A DNA stretch of 64,000 nt from a virus. Taxonomy: Duplodnaviria; Heunggongvirae; Uroviricota; Caudoviricetes. Under the pieces are notes generated by a model, which saw only the letters and a list, made by a program, of their open reading frames with translations, ran no database searches and was not told where the DNA came from. The stretch is from IMG/VR virus record IMGVR_UViG_2700989507_000006. One strand, written 5' to 3'. The position numbers and the translations under genes are program-made. Positions 11,756-12,730 of this stretch are shown piece by piece. The number at the start of each line of letters is the position of its first letter. Position 1 is the first letter of the stretch.

Positions 11756-12730
11756 TTATCCGTTACCTCGCGACGGTTTCTGGGTGATAAACGTATCAAG
11801 CATCTTTTCCGCGATTGCCGACCAGGTGTGACACTGGACCTTTTCAGCATTTTTCACGCGATCAACGCGAGCAATAACCTCATCCCAATCAATCCGCGAC
11901 TTGATAACCATATGGTTCACCAAAGCCAGGCGATCCGGCGGAAGACAATCGGGCGGCGTTAATATCAACGCCCCACACATTGCCGCCTCAAGAACAGTTA
12001 ATCCAAGGCTTTCGGGATGCGTAACAATAAAAACGTCACTCTTACGCAATTCAGCTGCAAATTCGGTTGCTGGTACCGGAGTCCGTCTGTATGGGGTTAC
12101 CGATATATTCCCCGGATCAATGGTAATCAATCCGTCATCGGTCAACGTTCTGGCCTCATACGGAACGGCCAGGCGCTGAAGGTTCATAAGGATACTTAAG
12201 GAGTGATCAAACCCACTAACATCAAATGCAGCGTGGTCTACAAAAATACGCAGAACATCGTCTGTTTTGGTTTCCAGATGGAACAGTTCCTGATTCGCTG
12301 CCCATCCAACATGTTTGTTAAAGCGATTATGACGCTCTAACCGACCGGGATTATCCAGGTACCGCCAGGTATCATCGCGGACAGTAAAAGTAATATCGAC
12401 TGGTGCCGAATCCAGCATAGAACCGTCATATACCTGGGCTACCCATCCAGAGAATCGGCGACACAGTTGCATGCCTATTTCCCTGGGTACCGTAGTAAAA
12501 TACCTCAATCCTGGTGCCAAAATGGCCTTCGCAGAACATGCGGTCGCAGCAGTCAACACAGCTTCAACATAATCCTCGGGGCTTTCGACGCCAGGGGAAT
12601 ATGGACGATGGTATTGCAATGTTACCCCTGCCTCACTAAAGGCGCAGGCCAGGTTATAAGCCCACATTTCCGTATATGTTTTCACATCACTGATGGCTTC
12701 AAATTTTCGCCCAATGATCAGGATGTTCAT
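11756..12730 (-). CDS. GT-B fold glycosyltransferase (GT4-like)
   Basis: ESLGLTVLEAAMCGALIL matches the E-x7-E retaining GT-B signature; likely start ATG 12728-12730 after GAGGAAAA RBS (track ORF to 12754); last gene of helicase operon. Confidence 0.55.
   Translation of the reverse strand: MNILIIGRKFEAISDVKTYTEMWAYNLACAFSEAGVTLQYHRPYSPGVESPEDYVEAVLTAATACSAKAILAPGLRYFTTVPREIGMQLCRRFSGWVAQVYDGSMLDSAPVDITFTVRDDTWRYLDNPGRLERHNRFNKHVGWAANQELFHLETKTDDVLRIFVDHAAFDVSGFDHSLSILMNLQRLAVPYEARTLTDDGLITIDPGNISVTPYRRTPVPATEFAAELRKSDVFIVTHPESLGLTVLEAAMCGALILTPPDCLPPDRLALVNHMVIKSRIDWDEVIARVDRVKNAEKVQCHTWSAIAEKMLDTFITQKPSRGNG

Follow-up and report, generated by a model that had tools for sequence, protein, structure and literature searches.

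The P1 gene dbn as a possible GT-B member of a four-enzyme glycan module carried by unrelated phages

Introduction

Phage-encoded glycosyltransferases with the GT-B fold, the fold also predicted here for Dbn, include the T4 alpha- and beta-glucosyltransferases (1y6f and 1c3j) and the HY126 DNA glycosyltransferase (9iqz). Gtr-type serotype conversion (GtrA/GtrB/GtrC) uses a membrane flippase, a bactoprenol GT2 enzyme and a polytopic periplasmic transferase, which are expressed in the lysogen. Giant viruses glycosylate their own capsid fibrils. Capsid and tail-tube proteins of mycobacteriophages are glycosylated as well, as described in the part of PMC12619734 that summarises Freeman et al. 2023. 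The present study concerns dbn, a gene encoded on a 64,000-nucleotide stretch of DNA from a virus of the class Caudoviricetes (IMG/VR record IMGVR_UViG_2700989507_000006; the whole stretch is hereafter called the window). This minus-strand open reading frame (ORF) is the dbn gene of phage P1, whose product has been listed as a possible glycosyltransferase since 2004. P1 is a standard tool of bacterial genetics and serves as the prototype for a phage-plasmid family that is very widespread.

Positions 11600–14200 of the window share 97–98.5% identity with phages P7, P1, RCS47, SJ46 and others, which identifies the window as a P1/P7-type punavirus. At the protein level, P1 Dbn (AAQ14048), P7 Glt (AAQ07543) and the RCS47 protein are 97–98.5% identical to the window protein; their genes share with it the position behind ban and the convergent terminator, and nothing substantive differs. 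The gene is annotated in P1 as "downstream of ban" and "function unknown, possible glycosyltransferase", in P7 as glt, "putative glycosyltransferase", and in the RefSeq record of RCS47 as "glycosyltransferase family 4 protein". The sequence-only reading of the window, made without database searches, had found no function obvious for this phage family, and these annotations were already in place. More than 2,400 member sequences make up the cluster of near-identical Dbn proteins. A genome-wide CRISPR interference screen classed dbn as non-essential (PMC10695390), and a 2025 preprint reported an altered dbn transcript level in an hfq mutant host, listing the gene among "uncharacterized loci" (bioRxiv 10.64898/2025.12.28.696737). 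Beyond these two observations, a search of the searchable literature returned no functional work on dbn as a glycosyltransferase. The gene itself is therefore already known, and what appears to be new here is its reading as part of a module, reached by computation only.

Results

The explanation that we consider best as a whole, though we hold it tentatively and at somewhat less than an even chance, is that PmgO, PmgP, PmgQ and, as the GT-B enzyme, Dbn would form a module of four that builds a glycan during the lytic phase, and that Dbn would extend a glycan carried by a virion protein. When the neighbours of dbn homologues were compared with the window by BLAST, their P1 equivalents were found 6–8 kb from dbn, beyond the baseplate/tail block, which would split the P1 module in two. 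These conserved partners are pmgO, pmgP and pmgQ (Table 1), and they had been overlooked in the helicase-centred context drawn by the sequence-only reading.

A hidden Markov model (HMM) scan covered 31 non-P1 loci, many of which re-sample one contig or lineage, and in most of them a PmgQ homologue was adjacent to or within 3 kb of the Dbn gene and one or two MptE-like genes lay upstream of it. Homologues of PmgO, PmgP and PmgQ flanked Dbn in lambdoid phages (L004, L006), lambda-head siphophages (L016–L019, L106), myoviruses (L107–L117), large phages (L012–L015, L101–L103, L180), a Citrobacter element (L003) and the E. coli phages EP_H11 and IME392; a metagenome contig (L005) was near-identical to the Citrobacter element. 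The Dbn gene was followed at once by the PmgQ gene, often with an overlap of a few bases, in the lambdoid phages, several myovirus contigs, the large phages, EP_H11 and IME392, and the two genes were 1–3 kb apart in the lambda-head siphophages. The exceptions to this arrangement were two distant members (L104, L105) and a Colwellia capsule locus. In EP_H11 (L181, OP688485), an unannotated gap in the GenBank record (8436–9000) encodes a PmgP-like, GT42/Maf-like protein, and the module of this phage is therefore complete and contiguous, in the order MptE-like, MptE-like, Dbn, PmgQ. Various phages carried tailoring genes with the module, namely FkbM and other methyltransferases, a pyruvyl transferase and a PIG-L deacetylase, and some also carried a sugar-activation gene of the cytidylyltransferase/mannose-phosphate-isomerase type. 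The first scan of viral contigs was saturated by near-identical P1-like contigs and was repeated with two distant sub-alignments. The broad alignment A2 proved too diverse for pattern-based locus retrieval. The corresponding scan of genome contigs for Dbn yielded only one P1-like contig and a 209-bp fragment.

Co-occurrence was also counted in 50,697 records of isolated phages. A Dbn homologue was present in 22 of them, each time together with a PmgQ homologue, and eight of the 30 PmgQ-bearing records were without a Dbn homologue. PmgQ is thereby the partner found most constantly with Dbn homologues. Since Dbn was not seen without PmgQ in isolated phages and PmgQ occurs alone, Dbn would most likely extend a glycan begun by PmgQ or other enzymes rather than prime it. 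Two P1-like phages, phi456 (OR339795) and Cronobacter phage JK004 (MZ188976), have a PmgQ homologue and no Dbn homologue at E ≤ 1e-10, which indicates that the dbn half of the module can be lost. These two phages, together with the physical separation of dbn from pmgO, pmgP and pmgQ in P1 and its Citrobacter relative, would agree with Dbn being a stand-alone moron glycosyltransferase with some other cytoplasmic target (a host or phage protein, a small molecule or glycogen), its neighbourhood reflecting shared mobility. We regard this as improbable: overlapping Dbn and PmgQ frames recur on many unrelated phage backbones, and this recurrence, combined with the co-occurrence in isolated phages, would be difficult to account for if the two were functionally unrelated.

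The neighbourhoods also bear on the suggestion, made from the sequence alone, that a glycosyltransferase co-expressed with replication functions might modify DNA or a replication protein. No helicase stood beside a Dbn homologue outside the P1 lineage among the loci examined, and ban and dbn are separable in P1-like elements; the ban linkage is an accident of the P1 lineage. Functional coupling of Dbn to the helicase was rejected on these grounds, and a replication protein as the target found no support. Glycosylation of phage DNA as a protection against restriction would agree with the co-transcription of dbn with the replicative helicase gene, and the module of lambdoid relatives is placed between the Q region and the terminase gene, a site that can hold DNA-modification genes. 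This target is nevertheless very improbable, given that the helicase linkage is confined to one lineage and that no base-hydroxymethylating or base-exchange enzyme was encoded at the module loci examined. Restriction enzymes cut P1 DNA, one of their classical substrates, and the host DNA packaged by P1 during transduction is unmodified. A pathway of four transferases that includes enzymes of the cytidine monophosphate (CMP)-sugar type matches no DNA glycosylation system known to us. Comparison of Dbn with the T4 alpha-glucosyltransferase (GT72) and beta-glucosyltransferase (GT63) likewise revealed no specific relatedness and no accompanying hydroxymethylated-base pathway.

Table 1. Features of the dbn region and of its putative partner genes in the window.
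Feature	Position	Strand	Basis
dbn (P7 glt), 324-residue GT-B glycosyltransferase (predicted), GT4-like C-terminal domain	11756..12730	-	
E-x7-E motif, E248-SLGLTVL-E256 (332-residue numbering), in the invariant block TH-x-ES-x-G...E-x-A-x-x-G	11987..12013	-	
ban, DnaB-like replicative helicase directly upstream of dbn	12754..14124	-	ORF, P1 and P7 annotation
Bivalent C1 repressor operator (Oban a/b)	16915..16942		consensus matches, P1 annotation
Bidirectional intrinsic terminator, dbn versus convergent baseplate gene 5	11710..11733		folding
pmgQ (P7 hdmD), 233-residue GT-A, GT8-like glycosyltransferase, invariant D79-L-D81	3262..3963	-	
ppp, lambda-type Ser/Thr phosphatase between pmgP and pmgQ	3960..4652	-	Pfam Metallophos 7.9e-16, P1 annotation
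pmgP, 208-residue MptE/Maf/GT42-like putative CMP-sugar-dependent glycosyltransferase	4634..5260	-	
pmgO, 220-residue MptE/Maf/GT42-like protein, paralogue of pmgP	5158..5820	-	

The Dbn protein was characterised by its conservation, predicted structure and profile matches. Among full-length P1-like copies of dbn, 70 of 71 were intact, and the distinct codon changes in these copies comprised 74 synonymous versus 50 non-synonymous; the gene evolves under purifying selection. The exception was the GenBank record of P7 (L001, AF503408), whose locus 4156–5154 corresponds to window 11756–12754. There, the tryptophan at codon 31 is replaced by a stop, because of which P7 glt is annotated shorter, whereas the window copy is intact. 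An AlphaFold model built with 17 homologues was confident (predicted local distance difference test score 88, predicted template modelling score 0.85), and Dbn fits the GT-B superfamily, whose members have two Rossmann-like alpha/beta domains and an interdomain cleft that holds the active site. An exhaustive profile search collected 372 cluster representatives at E ≤ 1e-3, mostly of about 310–335 residues, and some family members were fused to a second glycosyltransferase domain or to a methyltransferase.

The GT4-type E-x7-E signature pointed out in the sequence-only reading held up well (residue numbers follow the 332-residue form). Both E248 and E256 were invariant in alignments A1 and A2, including 54 diverse homologues, among which D173, H174, H246, G251 and G261 were also invariant; R224 was nearly invariant across the family. 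In a profile search of the PDB the E248-x7-E256 block, and this block alone, was matched and aligned to the EX7E helix of MshA (3c4q) and PimA (2gej), and a search with the single sequence gave only insignificant matches. The motif was thus not degenerate on alignment, and no characterised orthologue, such as a sugar-polymer glycosyltransferase, was found. Lower-scoring matches to Dbn were the lipopolysaccharide (LPS) enzymes WaaB (16.3) and WaaG (14.8) and the DNA enzymes T4 alpha-glucosyltransferase (16.2), HY126 glycosyltransferase (15.7) and T4 beta-glucosyltransferase (12.0). PHROGs places the protein in a family of unknown function, and an NCBIfam search matched no family, although NCBI names it "glycosyltransferase family 4 protein". 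Identity to the GT4 enzymes BshA (6n1x), PimA (2gej), MshA (3c4q), WaaG (8b5s) and WaaB (6y6i) was just 9–14%, and Dbn is shorter than these enzymes (about 320 residues). We read Dbn as a soluble, GT4-like sugar transferase of the GT-B fold that is predicted to be catalytically competent and is probably retaining.

The three partner genes are all annotated in P1 as "putative morphogenetic function". A profile of the PmgO/PmgP family matched the flagellin glycosyltransferase Maf (5mu5) at E 5e-3 and, with E values of 8e-6 to 3e-5, the GT42 sialyltransferases Cst-I and Cst-II; the latter matches run through two motifs, G-x-G-P-S-L and S-G...G-x-D. The MptE-like matches of both proteins were weak, that of PmgP to the Pfam family falling below threshold, and a match of a module enzyme to WaaZ was insignificant (E 0.11). 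By analogy with these relatives, PmgO and PmgP may use a CMP-activated ulosonic acid. We infer CMP-3-deoxy-D-manno-oct-2-ulosonic acid (CMP-Kdo) as the donor in E. coli K-12, where it is to our knowledge the sole such donor. In the proposed pathway PmgO and PmgP would transfer the CMP-activated sugar, PmgQ would perform a GT8-like step, and Dbn would act as a further transferase. Dbn and its three partners are free of membrane segments (maximum Kyte-Doolittle mean over 19 residues, 1.55), and the N-terminal domain of Dbn is acidic (isoelectric point 5.9), which speaks weakly against a membrane-bound acceptor.

The placement of the module in other phages suggested what the acceptor might be. 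In four of the lambda-head siphophages (L016–L019) the module was found directly behind the major capsid gene, on the same strand and with overlaps of a few bases into the head-tail genes, and in the fifth (L106) it was located behind a head-tail connector gene. It followed the tail sheath gene in four myoviruses (L110, L112, L114, L117) and stood just upstream of the terminase gene in the lambdoid phages. In P1, dbn abuts baseplate genes yet is transcribed from the ban operon, and pmgO–pmgQ belong to the late pmgL operon, which has a late promoter and adjoins tail genes. The placement in late structural operons, the apparently virulent carriers, the accompanying tailoring genes and the precedent of the mycobacteriophages lead us to propose one or more structural proteins of the virion as the acceptor, a choice by analogy that we consider possible without giving it an even chance. 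Knock-downs of dbn, pmgO, pmgP and pmgQ were all scored non-essential, as expected for a decoration function. No consistent C-terminal extension resembling a glycosylation-acceptor signature was found in the capsid proteins. One myovirus lineage encodes a Pro-rich protein of 120–187 residues between the tail sheath gene and the module (L114:7886–8428, L110:7396–7908, L112:6142–6504, L115:1113–1676), with up to five copies of a PD[NHQ][ST]LP repeat. This protein is a possible candidate for the glycan acceptor in that lineage; the motif was not found in P1 or the other lineages examined.

Several observations weigh against the module reading with its virion acceptor. Structural-operon placement is frequent, not universal: in EP_H11 the module is embedded amid small early-type genes, in the large phages its neighbours include recA-like genes, and dbn of P1 itself belongs to an early operon rather than a late structural one. 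A Dbn homologue stands beside kdsA in a KpsMT capsule locus of Colwellia, and the temperate phage Chlobot carries a solo PmgQ homologue between its integrase and tail-fibre genes, an interval that is a typical site of lysogenic-conversion genes. Among the nearest characterised relatives of the four enzymes are core transferases of LPS or lipooligosaccharide (LOS), namely LgtC, Cst-II, WaaB, WaaG and, weakly, WaaZ, together with protein glycosyltransferases. We know of no report of a glycan on P1 virions. For the enzyme itself, the Pfam family Glycos_transf_1 (PF00534) reached 23.7 bits against a curated cut-off of 26.4 and covered only the C-terminal GT-B domain; matches to PF13524 and PF13692 were likewise under threshold. 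Furthermore, GT4 enzymes have a Gly-rich loop near the N-terminus and bind the donor diphosphate with a Gly-Arg...Lys phosphate-binding motif behind the first strand of the C-terminal domain, whereas the family consensus behind strand 168–173 of Dbn is L-R-I-L-I-D-H, with the invariant D173-H174 and no conserved Arg or Lys. This invariant Asp-His in place of the GT4 motif may mean that the donor chemistry is atypical, and it is for this and the sub-threshold Pfam score that Dbn is termed GT4-like here rather than a tested member of GT4. The Colwellia homologue (233 residues, N-terminally truncated) was set aside for catalytic inference.

The Colwellia capsule locus, the Chlobot moron site and the LOS/LPS-type relatives of all four enzymes would each agree with a different target: working on the cytoplasmic side of the inner membrane, the enzymes would lengthen or modify the LPS core or another lipid-linked glycan. 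P1 uses the LPS core as its receptor, and masking of the terminal core glucose used for adsorption would reduce superinfection and the loss of progeny on debris. A host surface structure, which the sequence-only reading had listed among the possible targets, accordingly stays a live rival and is the main one, if unlikely. C1 represses both P1 operons in lysogens, which excludes classical lysogenic conversion unless predicted internal promoters are active. In several phages the module sits within tightly packed late structural operons, where remodelling of LPS would have little time to act, and some carriers of the module are large phages that appear virulent. The four proteins are without a membrane segment, the N-terminal domain of Dbn is acidic, not basic, and the module brings no flippase or ligase gene with it. 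A system of the Gtr type was not indicated either, as Dbn, PmgO, PmgP and PmgQ lack any hydrophobic segment and both operons carry C1 operators.

The operon structure bears on when dbn would be expressed. The sequence-only reading placed dbn last in a repressor-controlled operon, and both points were borne out. Read from the C1 operator, the operon order is tRNA-Asn, tRNA-Thr, tciABC, tRNA-Ile(CAT), ban and dbn. The two operator sites match the C1 consensus with 0 and 2 mismatches and overlap as a palindrome; both halves of the P1 module carry C1 operators. Expression from the C1-repressed ban operon would confine dbn to lytic growth. Between dbn and the convergent gene 5, a strong hairpin, AAAAGCCCG-n5-CGGGCTTTT, is flanked by A and T runs (free energy −21.1 kcal/mol, z −4.33). 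A consensus terminator scan did not pick it up because its stem reaches into the A and T runs, and folding confirmed it.

Less of the reported stop/start overlap with the helicase gene remained. The minus-strand ORF spans 11756–12754 (332 codons) and offers two candidate starts, ATG 12754 and ATG 12730. The TAA of ban (12756–12754) and the upstream ATG (12754–12752) do share a TAATG, so the overlap exists, but it pertains to the upstream ATG, which would lengthen Dbn in frame by 8 residues. The start at 12730, which leaves a 23-nt spacer behind ban and no overlap, is favoured for three reasons: all non-P1 homologues start, in the alignment, at the corresponding M-K/N-I-L-I-I-G; ATG 12730 is preceded by its own Shine-Dalgarno sequence, GAGGAAAAGCCGATG; and a gene inserted between ban and dbn in six P1-like contigs overlaps the ban stop and exactly ATG 12730. 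The TAATG is therefore probably not a functional ban–dbn junction, although the operon is tightly packed with either start. The inserted gene itself (101 codons; L093:9699–10004, also L094–L097 and L100) has no function assigned and meets the dbn start at MNILIIG.

Further features of the window were recorded around the module. The phosphatase gene ppp was not present in the module of the other phages examined and is an insertion of P1 between pmgP and pmgQ. In the Citrobacter element, a homologue of the coiled-coil protein PmgS (window 1698–2960) with 26% identity is encoded directly downstream of the PmgQ homologue (L003:3409–4704), and PmgS may be one more companion that the module has in particular lineages. 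pmgM (5984–6562) gave a weak, sub-cut-off match to a VRR-NUC nuclease domain (E 3e-4), pap (1118–1624) matched the HAD phosphatase domain of polynucleotide kinase-phosphatase (E 5e-12), and a 192-residue ORF (345–923) gave a weak ASCH match; none of the three is obviously morphogenetic. In the plp/upl region between tciA and tRNA-Thr (15213–16105), families of short direct repeats of 23–37 nt occur in 2–4 copies each, and a match to the small RNA STnc100 (15213–15333, minus strand) stayed, at 37.8 bits, under the gathering score of 47. Shiga toxin-converting phages carry similar DNA.

Discussion

The analysis establishes the fold and motif of Dbn, how the operon is built and which genes occur together; the acceptor is the least certain step drawn from them, and the donor sugars and the order of action we infer as well. 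In its broadest form, the proposal is that P1 and many other phages of Gram-negative hosts would attach a short hetero-oligosaccharide, built by the four enzymes, to their virions or to another target in the lytic phase, and at this breadth it is rather doubtful. It does join four orphan genes of P1 in one hypothesis that is testable with existing knock-outs. If a four-gene virion decoration were confirmed, a virion glycosylation system would be known for the first time from a classical coliphage, and four P1 genes now labelled putative morphogenetic or unknown would gain a function. Glycosylated P1 virions would have a bearing on phage immunogenicity, stability and transduction tools, and virion glycosylation would then reach from mycobacteriophages to enterobacterial and marine phages. 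If LPS were the target instead, the module would represent a lytic-phase mechanism of receptor masking. Either target would account for the spread of the module among unrelated phages.

Compared with characterised enzymes, the Campylobacter/Neisseria LOS outer-core enzymes Cst-II (GT42) and LgtC (GT8) and WaaZ of E. coli are all remote matches to the module, which is phage-borne, soluble and often located in virion operons. The closest viral structural match to Dbn was a Tupanvirus glycosyltransferase of similar length (A0A6N1NPH0 in BFVD; template modelling score 0.76–0.80, E 8e-18), with 16% identity, from a eukaryotic virus and equally uncharacterised. The mycobacteriophage cassettes, as the relevant part of PMC12619734 presents them, comprise several phage glycosyltransferases and methyltransferases inside structural operons and are non-essential, and the Dbn module, which is proposed to decorate virion proteins too, is alike in these respects. 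It differs in its Gram-negative hosts and in its enzyme families (GT42/Maf-like, GT8-like and the Dbn clade). In P1, unlike in the mycobacteriophage cassettes, the module is divided between an early and a late operon.

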